Sequence record: PQ308734.1
Source of the DNA: Klebsiella phage vB_Kp_Z1
Length of the DNA stretch: 46,827 bases
Reading direction: 5' to 3' (one strand)
Under the pieces are notes generated by a model, which saw only the letters and a program-made list of their open reading frames with translations, was not told where the DNA came from and ran no database searches. Position numbers and translations under genes: made by a program. Below, one piece after another: positions 7,180-46,632 of the stretch (position 1 is its first letter; each line of letters begins with the position of its first letter).

Positions 7180-7202
7180 ATCAGGCGCTACAATAGGGGG
7201 AG
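7180..7202 (+). promoter_or_regulatory. Phage-RNAP promoter-like 23-mer (divergent copy) inside the origin-like region
   Basis: AGGCGCTACAATAGGGGGAG matches the core CTACAATAGG of the consensus ATTAGGCACTACAATAGGAGAAG. Confidence 0.45.
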
Positions 7203-7206
7203 CCCA

Positions 7207-7253
7207 GTAAGCTATAATAGTAAGCTATAGTAAGCTATAGTAAGCCCTGTAAG
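7207..7253. repeat. Tandem AGTAAGCTAT iterons (3 full copies plus partials)
   Basis: GTAAGCTATAATAGTAAGCTATAGTAAGCTATAGTAAGCC, followed by an AT-rich palindrome TCTCTCTTTATAGAGAGA at 7266-7284. A related TAGTAAGCTAT motif recurs at 39320-39340. Confidence 0.5.
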
Positions 7254-11447: not shown

Positions 11448-13988
11448 ATGGAACACTTTCCGTCAATGTTTGCCAATAAAGCTGACCGCCCCTCTGGTAA
11501 GGGGCGCTTTCTTGTTGGTGACTTAGAGGGTGTGGGGCTTGTCAGGGCGATTCGTAAGCCGTCTGACATTCATGTCATCACCCTGCAAGATTACTTTAGC
11601 GGTGACTACTGGATTTTCTTCGATCCTATTGAGAAGCGAATCAACCCTAGCGAGCTGCAAATGGAAGGGGAGCAGGATGGCTACATTGAGGATGGTGTTC
11701 GTATGCTCATGGAGTCAGAAGCTTTCTGCTTCCAGAACGGGGTAGGCTTTGACTTGCATGTGTTTGAGAAATGCTTCCCGTGGTTCAGGTATAACTACTG
11801 TGAGTCACGAGCAGCTCGCCCACATGCTGACATCTTCCCGTTTAAGTTTATGGATACCATGCTGGTTAGCCAGCTGACTTATCCAGACCGCCCATTGCCA
11901 CCACAAGCTTACGCCATCGGCGCAGGTAATACTGGGCCGCATAGTATTGCAGCTCATGGTATCCGCATGGGTCGCTACAAGCCTGACCATGAAGACTGGT
12001 CTACTCTTACTGATGCAATGATTCACCGTAACGTGGAAGACGTTGCTATTGGTACTGATATGCTTAAGTGGCTCATGGAAGGTGATTGGGCTGAGCAGAA
12101 AGCTCGTGGCCTTAATAAGACCACTGGCTGTGGCATCGAGACTGCTTATCAGATGGAGCAGCAAGTGGCTCTCATGATTAGCCGTCAGGAGCAGCGGGGG
12201 TTCCGCTTTGATATGGCTCAGGCTTACAAAGACTACTGCGCCATTGACAAGGAGATGGAAGATACAGCAGCTGCTGTTGACCCACTCATACCACTGAGGC
12301 TTGTCACTAAGCCTTACAAGTTTGCTGACCTTAAGTCAAGGTATGATGCAGCTGTCAAGGCTGGGTTCACTGAGGCAGAGCTTAAGCCTGTCTTTAATGG
12401 CATCAATCAGACCATGAAAGCTATGGGTGATGAAGCTCGCATGGGTGACAAGGCTACTATGTGGTCTTTGACAACCAAGAACGGTGACTACAGCAAGCGT
12501 TTGCAAGGTTACTTCCCTGAGATGCGTGGCAACATAAATGACACGCATGACCCTCTTGTAGCTGGTGCATTCACTCCAATTAGCTTTGAGCATATTGGCT
12601 TGGGTAATCTTGACTACATTAAAGAGAAGGTGCTGTATCCACTTGGCTGGCGTGGTGTTAACTTGTCTGACTCTGAGCAAGAGTGGTATGACGAGCATGG
12701 CACAACACGTTATCCGTGGGCTGGTAAGATTGATGATGACTCGCTTGAGCTATGGAAGAAGAAACAGGAAGTACCAGAGTGGGCGCAGCAGGTTGTTAAC
12801 TACTACATCCTACGCTCGCGCCGCTCAGTTATCCTGAACCGAGGCGACCTTGACCACTTCCTTGAGAAAGGTCAGTGGCCTAAGCAGAAGAATGGGCGTC
12901 ATGAATGTCGTGGCTTGCTGGCAGTAGCTTACTGCAAAGAGTATGACATGACGGCTATGGAATACTTTGCTAAGTTCCGTGAGTGGCCTACATCTGAGGA
13001 TGAGGACTGGCGTGTACCAGCAGCAGCTTTCAGCATAGGAACCAATACCTTCCGTATGCGTCATCGCTTTGTGGTTAACATACCTGCTCGTGGGTTGTGG
13101 CCTCTGCGTCACCTGTTCATTGCATCTAAGGGTAAACTTATCTTAGGCTGTGATGGGGCTGGCCTTGAGCTACGTATGCTCAGTCACTTTATGAATGACC
13201 CTGAGTATCAAGACATCATACTTACAGGTGACATCCACACACATAACCAGCTTAAAGCAGGCCTACCTACAAGGGACATGGCGAAAACTTTCATATACGC
13301 CTTTCTCTACGGGTCAGGTATTGATGGGCTTGCCCGACTTGCTGGCATTAGCTTTAGTGAGATGGAGCAGTGTATTGCTCGCTTCAAAGCAGAGCTGCCT
13401 GCACTTGCTAAGCTCATTGAGCGTGTAGAAACTGCTGGTCGTAAGTTTGGCTACCTACAAGCTATTGATGGTCGCTGGGGCCGTATTCGCCGTAAGAATG
13501 GCAAGCCACTGCTGCACACTGCACTTAACGTATTGCTTCAGATGACTGGCTCTCTGGTTATGAAGTATGGTGAGTGCATCGCTGAGACTCAGATGATTGA
13601 GGAAGGGGTTGCATTAGATGATAAAGGCTATCCAGCTTTCGTGGCTAACGTACACGATGAAGTACAGATGGAAGTCCCTGAAGATGAAGTTGATGTTATG
13701 GACTACACGTTGCCATATACACTTGATGGATTCGAGAATGAGAAGAAAGCTATCAAAGCGGTCTTTGATGTTGAGGAGAAGCGAGCACACACTGATGACA
13801 GTGGGCGTAAGTGGTCAGCAGCTATCAAGGTTTCTGCTGCTGATGGTACTATCCATTGTCGCAGGTACTATCATCGAGCTGGTAACATCCTTATGGATGC
13901 TTTCGAAGCTGCTGGTGTTAAGTTCAACATGAGATGCCCACTTGCTGGTGAATATAAGATAGGCCGTAACTGGCATGATACTCACTAG
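11448..13988 (+). CDS. Family A DNA polymerase (846 aa, SP6-size) with a 3'-5' exonuclease domain
   Basis: Exo I FLVGDLEGVG; motif A LGCDGAGLELRML; motif B RDMAKTFIYAFLYGSG; motif C VANVHDEVQMEV. The ORF is continuous with no intron. Confidence 0.95.
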   Translation: MEHFPSMFANKADRPSGKGRFLVGDLEGVGLVRAIRKPSDIHVITLQDYFSGDYWIFFDPIEKRINPSELQMEGEQDGYIEDGVRMLMESEAFCFQNGVGFDLHVFEKCFPWFRYNYCESRAARPHADIFPFKFMDTMLVSQLTYPDRPLPPQAYAIGAGNTGPHSIAAHGIRMGRYKPDHEDWSTLTDAMIHRNVEDVAIGTDMLKWLMEGDWAEQKARGLNKTTGCGIETAYQMEQQVALMISRQEQRGFRFDMAQAYKDYCAIDKEMEDTAAAVDPLIPLRLVTKPYKFADLKSRYDAAVKAGFTEAELKPVFNGINQTMKAMGDEARMGDKATMWSLTTKNGDYSKRLQGYFPEMRGNINDTHDPLVAGAFTPISFEHIGLGNLDYIKEKVLYPLGWRGVNLSDSEQEWYDEHGTTRYPWAGKIDDDSLELWKKKQEVPEWAQQVVNYYILRSRRSVILNRGDLDHFLEKGQWPKQKNGRHECRGLLAVAYCKEYDMTAMEYFAKFREWPTSEDEDWRVPAAAFSIGTNTFRMRHRFVVNIPARGLWPLRHLFIASKGKLILGCDGAGLELRMLSHFMNDPEYQDIILTGDIHTHNQLKAGLPTRDMAKTFIYAFLYGSGIDGLARLAGISFSEMEQCIARFKAELPALAKLIERVETAGRKFGYLQAIDGRWGRIRRKNGKPLLHTALNVLLQMTGSLVMKYGECIAETQMIEEGVALDDKGYPAFVANVHDEVQMEVPEDEVDVMDYTLPYTLDGFENEKKAIKAVFDVEEKRAHTDDSGRKWSAAIKVSAADGTIHCRRYYHRAGNILMDAFEAAGVKFNMRCPLAGEYKIGRNWHDTH

Positions 13989-14036: not shown

Positions 14037-14801
14037 ATGTCTTTAGAAGGTTTTGATTTTGGCGCAGAGCTAGCAGAAGCGTCAGGTGTCAAACGAGTAA
14101 ACCCTGAAGTTGGCTTGCACTTTGCTCGCTTGCGTAGTGTGATTCACTTAGGCTCAATTGCTGCTATGTATCGTGGCAAGCCAAAGCCACCAGTTAACAA
14201 GGCTGCTTTCATCTTCGAACTTAAGGGCGACCTTGATGAGGTTGATGACCTGCACCCTGACAATGGTGAACCGCTGAGCATCGGCATCGGTGTAAACCTG
14301 ACCAAAGGTGACAACGCCAAGCTAACAGAAGTTATGGCAGCTCTCATCTCTAAGAAGGAGATGGAGGAAGGTACTGTCAAAGGTATGGATGACCTGATTG
14401 GTCGTGTATGCCAGCTTGACCTGAAGGGTAGCGATGCCAAGGGTGATGACGGTAAGCCTAAGTACGTTGACATCAAATCACTCAGCCCTGTGGCTAAGGC
14501 ATTCGCCGCACAGATTCCTGAGCTGTCAGTAGCTGGCGTAGGCCACTGCCGCCTGTCTCAGCTGACTATGGCTGCGATGGATGAGCTGAACGTATTCCTT
14601 GACGTCCAAGAGGGCATCATGAAATCTGAGGAGTGGAAAGCAGGAACGCACCCAGCAATCGCTCTGGTCGAGGAAATCCGCAAGGAGCGTCCTAACTATG
14701 CCAAGGCTGAGAAGAAGGCTGACAAAGGCGCTGACGAGCCACAGGGCGAGCAGGAGCCGTCTAAGCCAGTTGAGCAGATGAACACCGATGAGGAGTTCTG
14801 A
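14037..14801 (+). CDS. Putative ssDNA-binding protein (gp2.5-like; 254 aa, acidic C-terminus ending ...NTDEEF)
   Basis: A dedicated promoter, the size, and an acidic C-terminal tail ending in Phe are all typical of T7 gp2.5-class SSBs. Homology is not verified. Confidence 0.5.
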   Translation: MSLEGFDFGAELAEASGVKRVNPEVGLHFARLRSVIHLGSIAAMYRGKPKPPVNKAAFIFELKGDLDEVDDLHPDNGEPLSIGIGVNLTKGDNAKLTEVMAALISKKEMEEGTVKGMDDLIGRVCQLDLKGSDAKGDDGKPKYVDIKSLSPVAKAFAAQIPELSVAGVGHCRLSQLTMAAMDELNVFLDVQEGIMKSEEWKAGTHPAIALVEEIRKERPNYAKAEKKADKGADEPQGEQEPSKPVEQMNTDEEF

Positions 14802-14822
14802 GTCTAGTACACCAGACTGAAG

Positions 14823-14844
14823 CCGTACTAGTTAGCTAGTACGG
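14823..14844. promoter_or_regulatory. CCGTACTAG-TTAG-CTAGTACGG palindrome (type B member of the CTAGTAC hairpin family)
   Basis: 9-bp arms. Type B copies also occur at 473-490 (GTACTAG-CCAG-CTAGTAC), 7088-7105 (GTACTAG-TTGG-CTAGTAC) and 6923-6942 (TGTACTA-GTTTGA-TAGTACA). Confidence 0.5.
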
Positions 14845-14845
14845 T

Positions 14846-14868
14846 ATTAGGCACTACAATAGGAATAG
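14846..14868 (+). promoter_or_regulatory. Phage RNAP promoter (ATTAGGCACTACAATAGGAATAG)
   Basis: 21 of 23 positions match. The predicted +1 G is at 14862, and the transcript begins GGAAUAGCUGAG, reading straight into the tRNA-like element. Confidence 0.65.
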
Positions 14869-14946
14869 CTGAGTAGACTCAATTGGTAGAGCGGTACACC
14901 AGAAATGGCAGTATCGGTTGCTGGTTCAAGTCCAGCCTCAGCGACC
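14867..14946 (+). ncRNA. tRNA-like element lacking a canonical anticodon arm (tRNA pseudogene or structured decoy RNA)
   Basis: 6-bp acceptor stem GCUGAG/CUCAGC. U8-A9. A D-arm with conserved A14, A15, G18, G19 and A21 (ACUC-AAUUGGUA-GAGC). A perfect T-arm GCUGG-UUCAAGU-CCAGC, discriminator A, and CC. In the anticodon position there is a GGUAC-[A-CCA-GAAA-UGG-CA]-GUAUC hairpin with a GNRA tetraloop. I found no 5-bp stem with a 7-nt loop by hand. Confidence 0.35.
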
Positions 14947-14947
14947 T

Positions 14948-14970
14948 ATTAAGCACTACAATAGATATAG
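14948..14970 (+). promoter_or_regulatory. Phage RNAP promoter (ATTAAGCACTACAATAGATATAG)
   Basis: 19 of 23 positions match. It lies 38 nt upstream of gene 15008. Confidence 0.6.
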
Positions 14971-15007
14971 TGAATATCTCTTTCAAACTTTATGAGGAAT
15001 TAATATT

Positions 15008-15367
15008 ATGGCATTTGTAATCAAATCTGATGTATCCCGTCGTATCGTAGCTGGCGCTTTCAAAGAGTCTGAGTTCTTCTATGTAGCTGATGAAGCTACT
15101 GGTGAGCTGATTGGTAAGAAACCTCACGACACTCGTGAAGAAGCTGAGCTGGAGCTGGCTGGTCTGGCAGGTCTGGAAGCTGGTCTGGAGTTCGCTAAGG
15201 CTCAGTTCCCTAAACTGTCTACTAAAGCTCAGGTTGGTAAAGCCAACGTAATCTCCGAGTATCTGGCTTGGGAAGCAGCTGGTAAGCCAGTTAAGTCTGT
15301 TGAAGAAGCAGACGCTGAAGAAGTACAGGAAGCTCCAGAAGCTGCCGCAGAAGACGAAACCTTCTAA
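15008..15367 (+). CDS. Highly expressed small acidic protein (119 aa) with a C-terminal ...AEDETF tail; function unknown
   Basis: It has its own promoter and terminator. An AT-rich leader with GAGGAAT precedes the ATG. Codon choice resembles the capsid gene. The C-terminus is an acidic stretch ending in Phe, like the helicase and the SSB. Confidence 0.7.
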   Translation: MAFVIKSDVSRRIVAGAFKESEFFYVADEATGELIGKKPHDTREEAELELAGLAGLEAGLEFAKAQFPKLSTKAQVGKANVISEYLAWEAAGKPVKSVEEADAEEVQEAPEAAAEDETF

Positions 15368-15373
15368 TAAACT

Positions 15374-15410
15374 GCCCCATTGGTCAATCGACCTTTGGGG
15401 CTTATTTTTG
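15374..15410 (+). terminator. Rho-independent terminator
   Basis: GCCCCA-TT-GGTC-AATC-GACC-TT-TGGGGC hairpin, then TTATTTTTG. The 3' half is almost identical to the post-capsid terminator (GGGGCTTATTTTTGTT-GGAGG). Confidence 0.65.
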
Positions 15411-15421
15411 TTGGAGGGTTT

Positions 15422-15895
15422 ATGTTTAATACTCTATTCTATATAGACGAATCAAGCCCAAGTGGTCTTAAGTGGAAATGCAACAGAGGTAATCAGAAAT
15501 TTAAGGATAAGCCAGCAGGCACTTTGAATAATAGAGGCTACTGGGTTGTTGAGGTAAATCATAAAGGTCTAGTAGTTCATAGGATTATAGCGATACTTAA
15601 CAATTTGTTAGATGATTACTATTGTGATTTAGAGGTAGATCATATTAACAGAGATAGGTCGGATAACAGGTTATCTAACTTAAGGGTTGTTACTAGGAGA
15701 ATAAACCTTACTAACAAGGGTATATACAAGAATAATAAATCTGGTGTAGCTGGTGTCTATTGGTGTAAGGGTAGACCTAAGTTATCTGTTATAATTAGCT
15801 ACAATGGCAAGAAGTATCACTTAGGATACTTTGACACATTACTAGATGCTGTATCAGCGAGGTTAGGTAAGCTTAATGAACTTAAACGAATTTGA
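15422..15895 (+). CDS. Free-standing HNH endonuclease with a C-terminal AP2-type DNA-binding domain (157 aa from ATG 15422)
   Basis: GYWVVEV...HRIIA...LEVDHINRDRSDNRLSNL is an HNH motif. NKSGVAGVYWCKGRPKLSVIISYNGKKYHLGYFDTLLDAVSA looks like an AP2 domain. GGAGGG precedes the ATG. The track ORF 15380-15895 begins with a TTG inside the terminator. Confidence 0.8.
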   Translation: MFNTLFYIDESSPSGLKWKCNRGNQKFKDKPAGTLNNRGYWVVEVNHKGLVVHRIIAILNNLLDDYYCDLEVDHINRDRSDNRLSNLRVVTRRINLTNKGIYKNNKSGVAGVYWCKGRPKLSVIISYNGKKYHLGYFDTLLDAVSARLGKLNELKRI

Positions 15896-39289: not shown

Positions 39290-39392
39290 GAAGAACAGTA
39301 AGTATACAGTAGCTATAGTAAGCTATTGTTAGCCCTAGTAGCTACTGTACTTCTTCCTTATTATTTCTTATATCTTATTATAGAGGAGCTAT
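39290..39392. repeat. Imperfect inverted repeat containing TAGTAAGCTAT motifs in the 5' leader of the fibre gene
   Basis: ACAGTAAGTATACAGTAGCTATAGTAAGCTATTGTTAGCCCTAGTAGCTACTGTACTTCTTCC. The arms CAGTAGCTA / TAGCTACTG pair, and the motif echoes the 7207-7253 iterons. Confidence 0.4.
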
Positions 39393-46544: not shown

Positions 46545-46632
46545 GCTAGGTAGTTAGGGTAAGCTGCTGTTAACTGGAGTAAGCTATATGATAGGTTATG
46601 GAGAAGGTTAAGTAAGCTAGCTAGGTAGCCAT
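46545..46632. repeat. Right-end CTAGGTAG motifs and TAAGCT repeats adjacent to the terminal repeat
   Basis: GCTAGGTAGTT at 46545 and GCTAGCTAGGTAGCC at 46617. The same motif family occurs near the left end and inside the DTR. Confidence 0.45.

Follow-up and report, generated by a model that had tools for sequence, protein, structure and literature searches.

Positions 14867-14946 of the T7-like Klebsiella phage vB_Kp_Z1 (PQ308734.1; the window is the whole stretch of 46,827 nucleotides analysed) are best read from their sequence as encoding an L-shaped tRNA mimic that would be incapable of decoding. The element, here called type T1, lies between two promoters for a phage RNA polymerase, in a slot flanked by a 254-aa gene and a 119-aa gene which, in Gajwadongvirus and allies, carries at least 17 unrelated cargo types. 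The slot is probably a swappable module of small structured RNAs handled by host tRNA-processing enzymes, and not a working tRNA. We tentatively favour an explanation in which host RNase P and 3'-end enzymes cut T1, a non-decoding mimic, out of the transcript, so that it serves as a module for transcript processing. Coordinates are listed in Table 1.

Table 1. Features in and around the T1 slot of the window, in order of position.
Feature	Coordinates	Strand	Evidence or remark
First palindromic hairpin	14801-14818	+	Directly 3' of the 254-aa gene stop codon; AGTCTAGTACACCAGACT
Second hairpin, CCGTACTAG-TTAG-CTAGTACGG	14823-14844	+	Inverted repeat I1
Phage RNA polymerase promoter 1, -17 to +6	14845-14867	+	Consensus match, direct repeat D1; +1 = G14862
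tRNA-like RNA, type T1	14867-14946	+	Rfam tRNA score, cloverleaf energy, L042 substitutions
T1 acceptor stem	14867-14873 pairing with 14937-14943	+	
T1 U8 A9	14874-14875	+	
T1 D arm	14876-14892	+	
T1 non-canonical arm in place of the anticodon arm, GGUAC-A-CCA-GAAA-UGG-CA-GUAUC	14893-14915	+	Folding, Rfam alignment
T1 variable loop	14916-14919	+	
T1 T arm	14920-14936	+	
T1 A73-C74-C75	14944-14946	+	
Phage RNA polymerase promoter 2, -17 to +6	14947-14969	+	Consensus match, direct repeat; +1 = G14964
AT-rich leader of the 119-aa gene	14965-15009	+	80% A+T
119-aa gene, phrog_4429, function unknown	15008-15367	+	Homologues across SP6-like phages
Terminator-like hairpin GCCCCA...UGGGGC, then UUAUUUUU	15374-15409	+	Closes the transcription unit of the 119-aa gene

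In a sensitive Rfam search, 14867-14944 matched the tRNA family RF00005 at 35.3 bits, above the gathering score of 29. The alignment spanned the full model (positions 1-71) with E = 4e-6 locally; for the identical element in Klebsiella phage Roth32, searched in 45 kb, E was 8e-4. With the default fast filters, a scan of the whole 46.8-kb window missed T1. By sequence and model alignment the tertiary core was canonical at every position (U8-A14, A15-U48, G18G19 with U55C56, and U54-A58), as were the triples 10-25-45, 13-22-46 and 9-23-12, and A21, the T loop UUCAAGU and A73-C74-C75 were also present. A sequence-only reading of this DNA had listed U8, A14, A15, G18G19, A21, the same T loop and a discriminator A followed by CC, all of which we found as described, and the near-perfect acceptor, D and T arms that it saw are borne out by the Rfam match and the canonical core. 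It had, however, passed over a bulged A in the D stem (G10-a-C11) and an A.G mismatch at pair 1-72 in most copies, both of which depart from a canonical tRNA, as does the U at position 76, which coincides with position -17 of promoter 2. The tRNA-like domains of YrlA and tmRNA share with T1 the mimicry of a D/T elbow without an anticodon, whereas T1 has no Ro-binding stem, tag reading frame or G3.U70 pair. T1 scored only 13.9 bits against the YrlA model (RF02553, Y RNA-like; gathering score 69), and ARAGORN found no tmRNA in T1 at its default or 80% threshold.

The arm that replaces the anticodon arm is predicted to fold as a GGUAC/GUAUC stem, an A/CA internal loop, a CCA/UGG helix and a GAAA loop. 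It can be described as a 5-bp stem around a 13-nt loop, the loop itself consisting of 3 bp with a GNRA tetraloop cap, and the Rfam alignment needed a 13-nt insert at a stretch of 9 model positions to accommodate it. The only U in this loop is not position 33 of any possible 7-nt loop. The arm was invariant in 16/16 T1 copies, so its fold cannot be probed by covariation. ARAGORN called no tRNA at T1, either by default or with introns allowed, and a 5-bp stem with a 7-nt loop, U33 and a readable anticodon could not be drawn in T1; the earlier observation that no 5-bp stem with a 7-nt loop exists here is therefore upheld, and T1 is not a plain tRNA. At the 80% threshold ARAGORN forced a 'tRNA-Leu(cag)' with a 6-nt 'intron' onto T1. 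No bacterial enzyme is known that removes a 6-nt insert from an anticodon loop by splicing.

That T1 nevertheless decodes as a true tRNA, its anticodon loop being unusual or carrying a mini-intron, is implied by the Roth32 record, which annotates tRNA-Ser on the identical element, and the Rfam score of T1 does exceed the gathering threshold. The authors of that record retained tRNAscan-SE calls even without ARAGORN confirmation (PMC12629751). We find this reading barely credible: besides the missing U33 loop, the forced Leu(cag) call conflicts with the Ser annotation, and other tRNA-like cargoes in the slot have faulty loops too, with a 5-nt 'anticodon' loop in relative L011 (30.2 bits as tRNA) and a G33 in L050 (28.3 bits). 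The same three points, with the negative ARAGORN result, weigh strongly against the initial suggestion of a tRNA with a non-standard anticodon loop. The interpretation given in the sequence-only reading is, overall, supported in part.

Natural variants suggest, at the level of sequence, that selection acts on the acceptor stem and T arm. T1 of relative L042 differs from the window at three positions and scored 40.2 bits as a tRNA: C50>A with G64>U changes a T-stem C-G pair to A-U, a compensatory change, and G72>U converts the A1.G72 mismatch to A1-U72. The sole difference in L025 fell in the unpaired variable loop, and all T1 substitutions at paired positions keep or improve the cloverleaf. 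A second tRNA-like type, T2, has a compensatory difference of its own (GCUGG/CCAGC in L050 versus GGUGG/CCACC in L049). The covariation evidence comes from one informative variant per type, L042 alone in the case of T1, for which a shuffle control (177/500) was not significant. All 13 of 13 aligned T1 copies were identical to the window or differed at one unpaired base, and that of RCIP0053 was a 100% BLAST match. Variable sites numbered 1/80 in T1 and 38/765 in the neighbouring 254-aa gene among 14 near-identical genomes, selected by an identical neighbouring protein; the difference was not significant, and we rejected T1 conservation as evidence of function.

These data bear on whether T1 is a decaying tRNA gene or neutral spacer, that is, an ancestral phage tRNA between the promoters which lost decoding and is drifting, with at most a hairpin-forming spacer being required. 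Several cargo types do resemble eroded relatives: L010 retains CAAUUGGUAAAG and UAGAC, the RCIP0089 type retains AGAAAUGGC (borderline similarity, p about 0.02 per pair) and Nufs112 has a T loop without a match to the tRNA model. The slot can also be empty, and the variation of T1 is not significantly below that of the 254-aa gene. Decay is unlikely in our view, however. By our estimate, random placement would yield the L042 compensatory pair and mismatch repair with a probability of about 1e-4; T2 has a compensatory T-stem change; the tertiary-core nucleotides of T1 are all intact; and T arms are retained, with varying middle arms, in lineages old enough for promoter specificity to have changed. 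Nor did BLAST of the 86-nt unit find a close parent: in phages the matches, to tRNA-Ile, tRNA-Thr and tRNA-Trp, were merely generic at about 73% identity, and across 5,426 E. coli genomes no match exceeded a 21-nt word. The pseudogene that had been proposed to have hitch-hiked here is thus disfavoured by structure-keeping substitutions and by T arms in five unrelated cargo types.

A different structure was also considered. The minimum-energy fold of T1 in nearest-neighbour prediction is not the cloverleaf (-24.2 kcal/mol) but a nearly continuous 28-bp rod (-27.6 kcal/mol), and the 3.4 kcal/mol difference raises the idea that T1 is a double-stranded hairpin serving as an RNase III site like R1.1 of T7, its tRNA resemblance being historical. 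T1 occupies the same place as R1.1, between tandem promoters, and long hairpins occur among the other cargoes, ECBP5-a for instance with a z-score of -6.7. We consider this reading highly unlikely. C50>A with G64>U in L042 is compensatory in the cloverleaf T stem alone; in the rod, where C50 is paired to the D-loop region and G64 has no partner, the change would weaken the structure. Many cargoes (Tola, KL01, L045) are, moreover, far shorter than the roughly 20 bp required by RNase III.

Among relatives the contents of the slot range from nothing (L048) through a 20-nt spacer (L045) and structured RNAs of 20-130 nt to a 67-aa protein; the ORF of the latter, in L044, belongs to phrog_9565, a real protein family. 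Exact-protein look-ups were a far richer source of loci than scans anchored on the conserved hairpin, which yielded only four loci in a viral collection and two in a metagenome collection. No canonical tRNA was present in 29 related loci, and the other cargo types had no Rfam match to known RNA families. A T arm, defined as a stem of >=4 bp with a UU[CU]RAN[UC] loop, occurred in 5/17 cargo types, always at the 3' end and adjoining an acceptor-like closing strand; 0.05 were expected from shuffles, and both strands of the whole window held three matches. In phages with the promoter type of the window or a close variant, 10/11 cargo types had one design, with a 5-6-nt leader, a closing stem from +6 or +7 and N-ACC right before promoter 2. 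Acceptor stem, T arm and 3' ACC are kept across cargo types and the middle arm varies freely.

Cargoes could not be aligned between phages whose flanks are about 81-97% identical. Each type was private to its own lineage among GenBank phages, and on this ground we rejected the idea that they are widespread mobile cassettes; the RCIP0089 type was found in one Klebsiella phage and one Pectobacterium phage by listed host genus. Pairwise cargo alignments had borderline shared words (p about 0.01-0.02), a hint, and not a result, of common ancestry.

The promoter 17-mer, ATTARGCACTACAATAG, occurs 11 times in the window, compared with 0.48 expected, and 10/11 copies are on the + strand. Perfect copies begin at 14846 and 14948, and promoters 1 and 2 form a 24-nt direct repeat (D1) with a spacing of 102 nt. 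We assigned +1 positions by alignment with the T7 promoter register. The initial description of two phage promoters about 100 nt apart, with a start at G14862 and T1 exactly between them, proved correct, except that T1 position 1 (14867) is +6 of transcript 1, where +5 had been given. C75 (14946) is one base ahead of position -17 of promoter 2, and in folding the cargo forms a self-contained domain within the promoter 1 transcript. Abundant production of T1 is plausible.

Upstream, the first hairpin is imperfect in the window phage and perfect (GTCTAGTACACTAGAC) in most relatives; it has a 10-mer, GTACACCAGA, in common with the odd arm of T1. The second hairpin is kept in L002-L011, L021 and L039-L062, including relatives with a different promoter. 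Because it has no U tract, it probably protects the 3' end of the upstream mRNA. Downstream, the AT-rich leader that follows promoter 2 is the most AT-rich 45-mer of the 46.8-kb window, and the 119-aa gene is the sole gene of its short transcription unit. The flanking proteins had no Pfam match above the curated cut-off and belong to PHROG families of unknown function. Masking of the ribosome binding site of the 119-aa gene by the 3' ACCU/CCUC in promoter 1 transcripts was rejected, as the cassette folds alone and pairing at this site does not exceed that in promoter 2 transcripts. We also discarded ACC as a component of promoter 2, since other promoters in the window are without it.

These elements can be assembled into the processing module that we favour, in which all enzymatic steps, and any advantage that the phage may gain, are inferred. 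Promoter 1 would transcribe T1 with a 5-nt leader, GGAAU, and read-through from upstream genes would do so as well. With its acceptor stem stacked on the T arm, an intact D/T elbow and a 3' A73-C74-C75, T1 would be a substrate for the host tRNA-end machinery. The predicted RNase P site is the U14866/A14867 junction; on the 3' side, an endonuclease would cleave within the AU-rich UAUUAAG that directly follows C75, after which exonucleases would trim the end and the CCA-adding enzyme would complete it, giving a stable RNA of about 80 nt. The cuts would also detach the message of the 119-aa gene from the upstream mRNA, leaving both conserved hairpins at the 3' end of the latter, and the module would thereby do the job of the T7 RNase III site R1.1 between phi1.1A and phi1.1B.

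Bacterial RNase P needs just an acceptor stem, a T stem-loop and a 3' RCC, and processes non-tRNA phage RNAs. T1 has the corresponding sequence features: the GGAAU leader with U at -1, a 7 + 5 bp stack and the 3' A73-C74-C75. Tagging the element as a mimic or decoy, the sequence-only reading had offered both an RNase P processing signal, which fits best because acceptor stem, T arm and 3' ACC are kept while the middle arm varies, and a bait for PrrC, RloC or similar anticodon nucleases, which fits poorly because T1 has no anticodon loop to offer. Elements of this kind act as 'punctuation' in other genomes, as in mitochondrial tRNA punctuation, plant mitochondrial t-elements, mascRNA and the viral tRNA-likes of MHV68. 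T1 resembles them in placing an acceptor/T-arm module with a 3' RCC inside a longer transcript where decoding is unneeded, cleavage being only predicted for T1. It differs in belonging to a dsDNA phage, in its predicted use of the bacterial host's RNase P and in being swappable cargo between phage promoters.

Some observations count against a processing module. The slot may be empty or hold only a 20-nt spacer, so processing there is dispensable, and the need for it is doubtful because promoter 2 already gives the 119-aa gene its own transcript. Swapping between close relatives is not obviously needed by a processing signal; such turnover looks more like that of an accessory or arms-race locus. 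The 3' ACC could also have been kept for pairing with the GG at +1/+2 of transcript 1, as in minimum-energy folds. The U at position 76 and a rod predicted to be more stable than the cloverleaf are further points against this model.

It is possible, if on balance doubtful, that T1 acts in trans: as a small RNA made in abundance, it would bind or titrate a host factor that recognises the tRNA elbow and acceptor end. Candidates are the CCA-adding enzyme, RNase P itself, LeuRS and a defence effector by which the 3' ends of tRNAs are modified or cleaved. The slot behaves like an accessory locus, with unalignable, lineage-private cargo, presence/absence polymorphism (L048) and a protein in L044; T1 has a dedicated strong promoter and a fully intact tRNA core. 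Against this, tRNA features are altogether lacking in many cargo types, which makes a single shared target unlikely, and the RCIP0089 type occurs in phages of different listed host genera.

In one version of the trans-acting reading, LeuRS would charge T1 with leucine, making it a non-decoding Leu donor or sink. E. coli LeuRS needs A73, A15-U48, G18G19 and D/T tertiary pairs, and needs neither the anticodon arm nor the long variable arm (PMC9976931). All of these required features are in the T1 sequence, and T1 has the D-loop string AAUUGGUAGA, the T loop GGUUCAAGUCC and A73 in common with E. coli tRNA-Leu(CAG). Minimalist tRNA-Leu substrates of the E. coli enzyme (Larkin et al. 2002, summarised in PMC9976931) likewise share A73, A15-U48, G18G19, U54-A58 and the D/T loop pairs with T1, but they are engineered molecules, whereas T1 is natural and its acceptor stem and D-stem register are unlike those of tRNA-Leu. 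The A20a identity element of tRNA-Leu is not unambiguously assignable in T1, whose D stem is bulged, and the mismatched pair 1-72 of most copies also weighs against this reading.

A bolder proposal, to which we give little credence, is that these phages maintain the slot as a promoter-flanked 'RNA cargo bay', with recombination at the promoter repeats swapping one cargo for another. The tRNA-shaped cargoes, types T1-T5, would then be processed, CCA-tailed, trans-acting mimics that divert or block a host factor for the acceptor end, for example a defence toxin modifying the 3' CCA or an aminoacyl-tRNA-dependent transferase, and T1 would be charged by LeuRS.

The layout has its closest parallel in phi1.1A - R1.1 - phi1.1B of T7. 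In both, tandem phage-polymerase promoters lie 75-102 bp apart (75 bp in T7), a self-contained structured RNA exactly fills the gap, and a very AT-rich stretch and a small gene come next. Unlike R1.1, an RNase III hairpin, the intervening RNA of the window phage is a tRNA-shaped cloverleaf; its slot follows the DNA polymerase and 254-aa genes, whereas that of T7 follows the RNA polymerase gene, and window-type cargo is hypervariable among close relatives. The phi1.1A/phi1.1B region is the primary T7 replication origin (PMC8373140). Applied to T7, our 45-mer AT measure picked regions downstream of phiOL, phi6.5, phi1.1B, phi10 and phiOR; four of these five promoters are named as origins, and the phi10 promoter is also referred to as from an origin (PMC8373140). 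The window has the same arrangement of promoters followed by its AT-richest 45-mer (14965-15009), which makes the tandem promoters and this segment a candidate replication origin of the phage group.

For a phage group with an unmapped origin, this candidate is a concrete one. The tRNA-Ser annotation in Roth32 is almost certainly wrong as regards decoding, and it would skew work on Autographiviridae tRNA content and codon usage. T7-like phages provide the classic example of transcripts punctuated by RNase III. If the processing module is real, a sister lineage does this with tRNA-shaped modules, presumably through RNase P, and the processing logic would be conserved while the host nuclease is changeable. 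The slot also offers a compact, easily tested case of cassette exchange at promoter repeats. Should its RNAs act in trans, the slot would be a new place to find small effector RNAs of phages, and if the cargo-bay proposal held they would represent a new class of RNA-based factors for counter-defence or host takeover by phages.

A sensitive Rfam search of window positions 14780–15020 matched the full tRNA model (RF00005) to 14867–14944 with 35.3 bits (gathering score 29, E = 4 × 10−6), and the identical element of Klebsiella phage Roth32 was recovered in a 45-kb search (E = 8 × 10−4). The default fast-filter Rfam scan of the whole window missed the element, and ARAGORN reported no tRNA for it. 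In the alignment, a 7-bp acceptor stem with A.G as its first pair is followed by U8, A9 and a D stem of 4 bp from which a single A bulges, with AAUUGGUA as its loop; the T stem, 5 bp long, closes UUCAAGU, and the 3′ end reads A73-C74-C75. All nucleotides that build the L shape are canonical (U8-A14, A15-U48, G18G19 opposite U55C56, U54-A58), as are the triples 10-25-45, 13-22-46 and 9-23-12. The tRNA-like element is real, and the sequence-only reading, which had described almost perfect acceptor, D and T arms, is confirmed. Small corrections are that an A bulges from the D stem, that A1 and G72 are mismatched and that the element begins at transcript position +6.

The window is an essentially complete T7-like phage genome, 98–99% identical to Roth32 across the 13–18 kb region compared; for the intergenic region of 600 bp, Roth32 and RCIP0053 (both of the genus Gajwadongvirus, Autographiviridae) show 99.8% identity. 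Almost all long ORFs lie on the + strand, among them one of 877 aa that we take, on size and position, to be a putative single-subunit RNA polymerase. The 254-aa protein has an acidic C-terminus (...MNTDEEF), which may resemble that of gp2.5, the single-stranded-DNA-binding protein of T7. Homing endonuclease positions differ from relative to relative. The window has an HNH insertion between the 119-aa gene terminator and the exonuclease gene, and in Roth32 a weak group I intron match spans an HNH-type ORF interrupting the DNA polymerase gene.

Features of the slot, of the rest of the window and of related loci
Feature	Coordinates	Remark
DNA polymerase gene	11448–13988	unbroken, unlike that of Roth32
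254-aa protein gene	14037–14801	phrog_862
TGAGTCTA	14799–14806	at stop codon
Two palindromic hairpins	14801–14844	directly 3′ of 254-aa gene
GTACACCAGA, first copy	14807–14816	in first upstream hairpin
Promoter 1	14846	transcription start G14862
tRNA-like element (T1)	14867–14946 (+)	
TAGACTCA	14874–14881	in D arm
Middle arm	14893–14915	in place of anticodon arm
GTACACCAGA, second copy	14894–14903	in middle arm
Promoter 2	14948	transcription start G14964
Leader	14965–15009	directly 3′ of promoter 2
HNH endonuclease insertion	15432–15890	~459 bp relative to Roth32; PF13392, phrog_99
AGTAAGCTAT copies	7206–7238, 39317–39326, 46578–46620, 619–640 (−)	
Roth32 DNA polymerase region (L001), intron match	741–1405	26.3 bits; gathering score 50
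ECBP5 (L002), first cargo	1767–1888	
Related locus L044, protein cargo	384–587	phrog_9565

On sequence grounds, the promoters on either side of the element are real. The 17-mer ATTARGCACTACAATAG occurs 11 times in the window against 0.48 expected, 10 of the 11 copies being on the + strand, and those copies whose flanks were read precede genes. The copies forming promoters 1 and 2 are perfect and make up a 24-nt direct repeat with a spacing of 102 nt, and their transcription starts were placed by the T7 promoter register. The second upstream hairpin, CCGTACTAG-N4-CTAGTACGG, is without a U tract and is kept even where phage promoter specificity differs; its role may be to bind a protein or to stabilise the 3′ end of the mRNA. 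The 10-mer GTACACCAGA occurs twice (chance expectation for such repeats in 241 nt ~0.03, our own estimate), and TGAGTCTA is complementary to TAGACTCA, which could reflect how the arm arose, a competing pairing in read-through transcripts, or coincidence. AGTAAGCTAT clusters close to the ends of the window and shortly 3′ of two promoters, those at 7180 and 39261, with 22 matches at ≤1 mismatch against 6.6 expected.

At the anticodon loop position there are 13 nt (ACCAGAAAUGGCA) where the model expects 7 nt, folding as CCA/UGG with a GAAA cap, and none of the 7-nt windows of this loop has U at position 33. The Roth32 record labels the identical element tRNA-Ser; this label stems from tRNAscan-SE calls, which its authors retained even without ARAGORN confirmation (PMC12629751). 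ARAGORN still found no tRNA in the element with introns allowed, and only when forced at an 80% threshold did it return a 'tRNA-Leu(cag)' containing an 'intron' of 6 nt. The loop and the ARAGORN results therefore confirm that a standard anticodon arm is missing, and the plain tRNA gene named as the contrary outcome did not appear in either ARAGORN mode. To the extent that sequence can tell, a decoding tRNA is ruled out. The suggested role as a bait for anticodon nucleases is improbable, since the RNA lacks an anticodon loop.

Identical elements were present in ten more contigs, from different samples, and in Roth32, RCIP0053 and IMG/VR contig L008; metagenome contig L025 has one change, in the variable loop. 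Element diversity was not significantly lower than that of the neighbouring gene. In L042, a phage whose 119-aa protein is only 88% identical, the element carries three substitutions: C50>A together with G64>U makes a T-stem C-G pair A-U, and G72>U converts the A1.G72 mismatch to A1-U72, with the Rfam score rising to 40.2 bits. We estimate a probability of roughly 10−4 that three random substitutions would yield a compensatory pair and a mismatch repair; a formal shuffle test with three sequences was not significant. The minimum-energy nearest-neighbour fold is a rod (−27.6 kcal/mol, vs −24.2 kcal/mol for the cloverleaf), as a rod-shaped RNase III substrate would be, but that reading is disfavoured by the L042 changes, which are compensatory in the cloverleaf only. 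The middle arm, the fold of which is predicted, is invariant.

Every relative has the same frame between the 254-aa and 119-aa genes: stop codon, one or two hairpins (the window's two palindromes in core relatives), promoter 1, cargo, promoter 2 and an AT-rich leader. The cargo was unalignable between phages with flank identities of ~81–97%, and 17 RNA cargo types of 20–130 nt were catalogued. In place of an RNA cargo, L044 has an ORF of 67 aa that comes with a ribosome-binding site of its own, L048 has no cargo and one hybrid promoter, and Escherichia phage ECBP5 has three promoters and two cargoes. L044 and L047 belong to one lineage in which this protein gene fills the slot between the tandem promoters; in the sister contigs L045 and L046 the slot is just a spacer of 20 nt with ACCT at its end. 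The ECBP5 promoters are in tandem; its first cargo, an RNA of 130 nt, folds into a very stable Y shape (−57.7 kcal/mol, z = −6.7) and matched no Rfam family, and its second is short. Among GenBank phages every cargo type is private to its own lineage. One ~105-nt type (AAGGUGA.AGCCAAUGUCAG...UGAC.UAACCUU) is common to Klebsiella phage 6939 (L018) and loci L060–L062, the carriers having different promoters (TTACACAATAG vs GCACTACAATAG); it either moved between lineages or predates the change in promoter specificity. One leader type was found with differing cargo types. Taken together, the private cargoes, the cargo shared across promoters and the mixing of leaders and cargoes point to a probable exchange of cargo via recombination at the promoter repeats.

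A T arm, defined as a UU[CU]RAN[UC] loop on a stem of 4 bp or more, was found in five of the 17 cargo types (0.05 in shuffled cargoes), always 3′-terminal and adjoining the closing strand; of three matches on both strands of the window, only the one in the element has a stem of five Watson-Crick pairs. The L011 element, whose phage uses a T3-like promoter, scored 30.2 bits as a tRNA, with a 5-nt 'anticodon' loop and no G18G19. That of L050, a second tRNA-like type (T2), scored 28.3 bits and has G33, and its partial variant L049 shows a compensatory T-stem change (GCUGG/CCAGC vs GGUGG/CCACC). ARAGORN found no canonical tRNA in 29 related loci. Thus, the acceptor stem and T arm were kept, in T1 and T2 with the D/T elbow, and the anticodon arm was lost. 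Of 11 cargo types from phages that use the promoter type of the window or one closely similar to it, ten have a 5–6-nt leader, a closing stem from +6 or +7, and N-ACC abutting promoter 2; none of the window's other promoters is preceded by ACC. Closing stems show compensatory changes within types. The structure-preserving substitutions and the recurrence of T arms speak against a neutral, decaying pseudogene, so the hitch-hiking degenerate tRNA proposed earlier is disfavoured.

Bacterial RNase P, 3′-trimming nucleases and the CCA-adding enzyme recognise exactly the parts that are conserved here, and none of these enzymes is known to depend on the anticodon arm. Excision by the host tRNA-end machinery, every enzymatic step of which we infer, is therefore the most likely mechanism. 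RNase P would cleave between 14866 and 14867, and an endonuclease within the AU-rich sequence 3′ of C75. A stable small RNA would thereby be set free, and the upstream mRNA, its 3′ end retaining the two conserved hairpins, would be parted from that of the 119-aa gene. Slot turnover, presence/absence polymorphism and occasional protein cargo resemble an accessory locus, so a trans-acting role is a serious rival to excision. Moreover, the D-loop string, T-loop string and A73 of T1 are the same as in E. coli tRNA-Leu(CAG); LeuRS requires neither anticodon arm nor variable arm (PMC9976931), and leucylation of T1 is conceivable.

T7 has the same arrangement, with φ1.1A and φ1.1B 75 bp apart and a hairpin-forming sequence between them. 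We take this hairpin to be R1.1, a known RNase III substrate. The φ1.1A–φ1.1B region is also the primary replication origin of T7 (PMC8373140). The window's leader is the genome's most AT-rich 45-mer (80% A+T), and the same measure in T7 picks regions downstream of φOL, φ6.5, φ1.1B, φ10 and φOR, four of which are named as origins (PMC8373140). Because its tandem promoters and AT-richest leader match the T7 primary origin architecture, the site is a candidate replication origin of this phage group. The element itself is a real, unusual feature with a putative function, which we class as a novel form among two known kinds, the tRNA mimics of viruses and, in T7-type phages, the modules for intercistronic processing.
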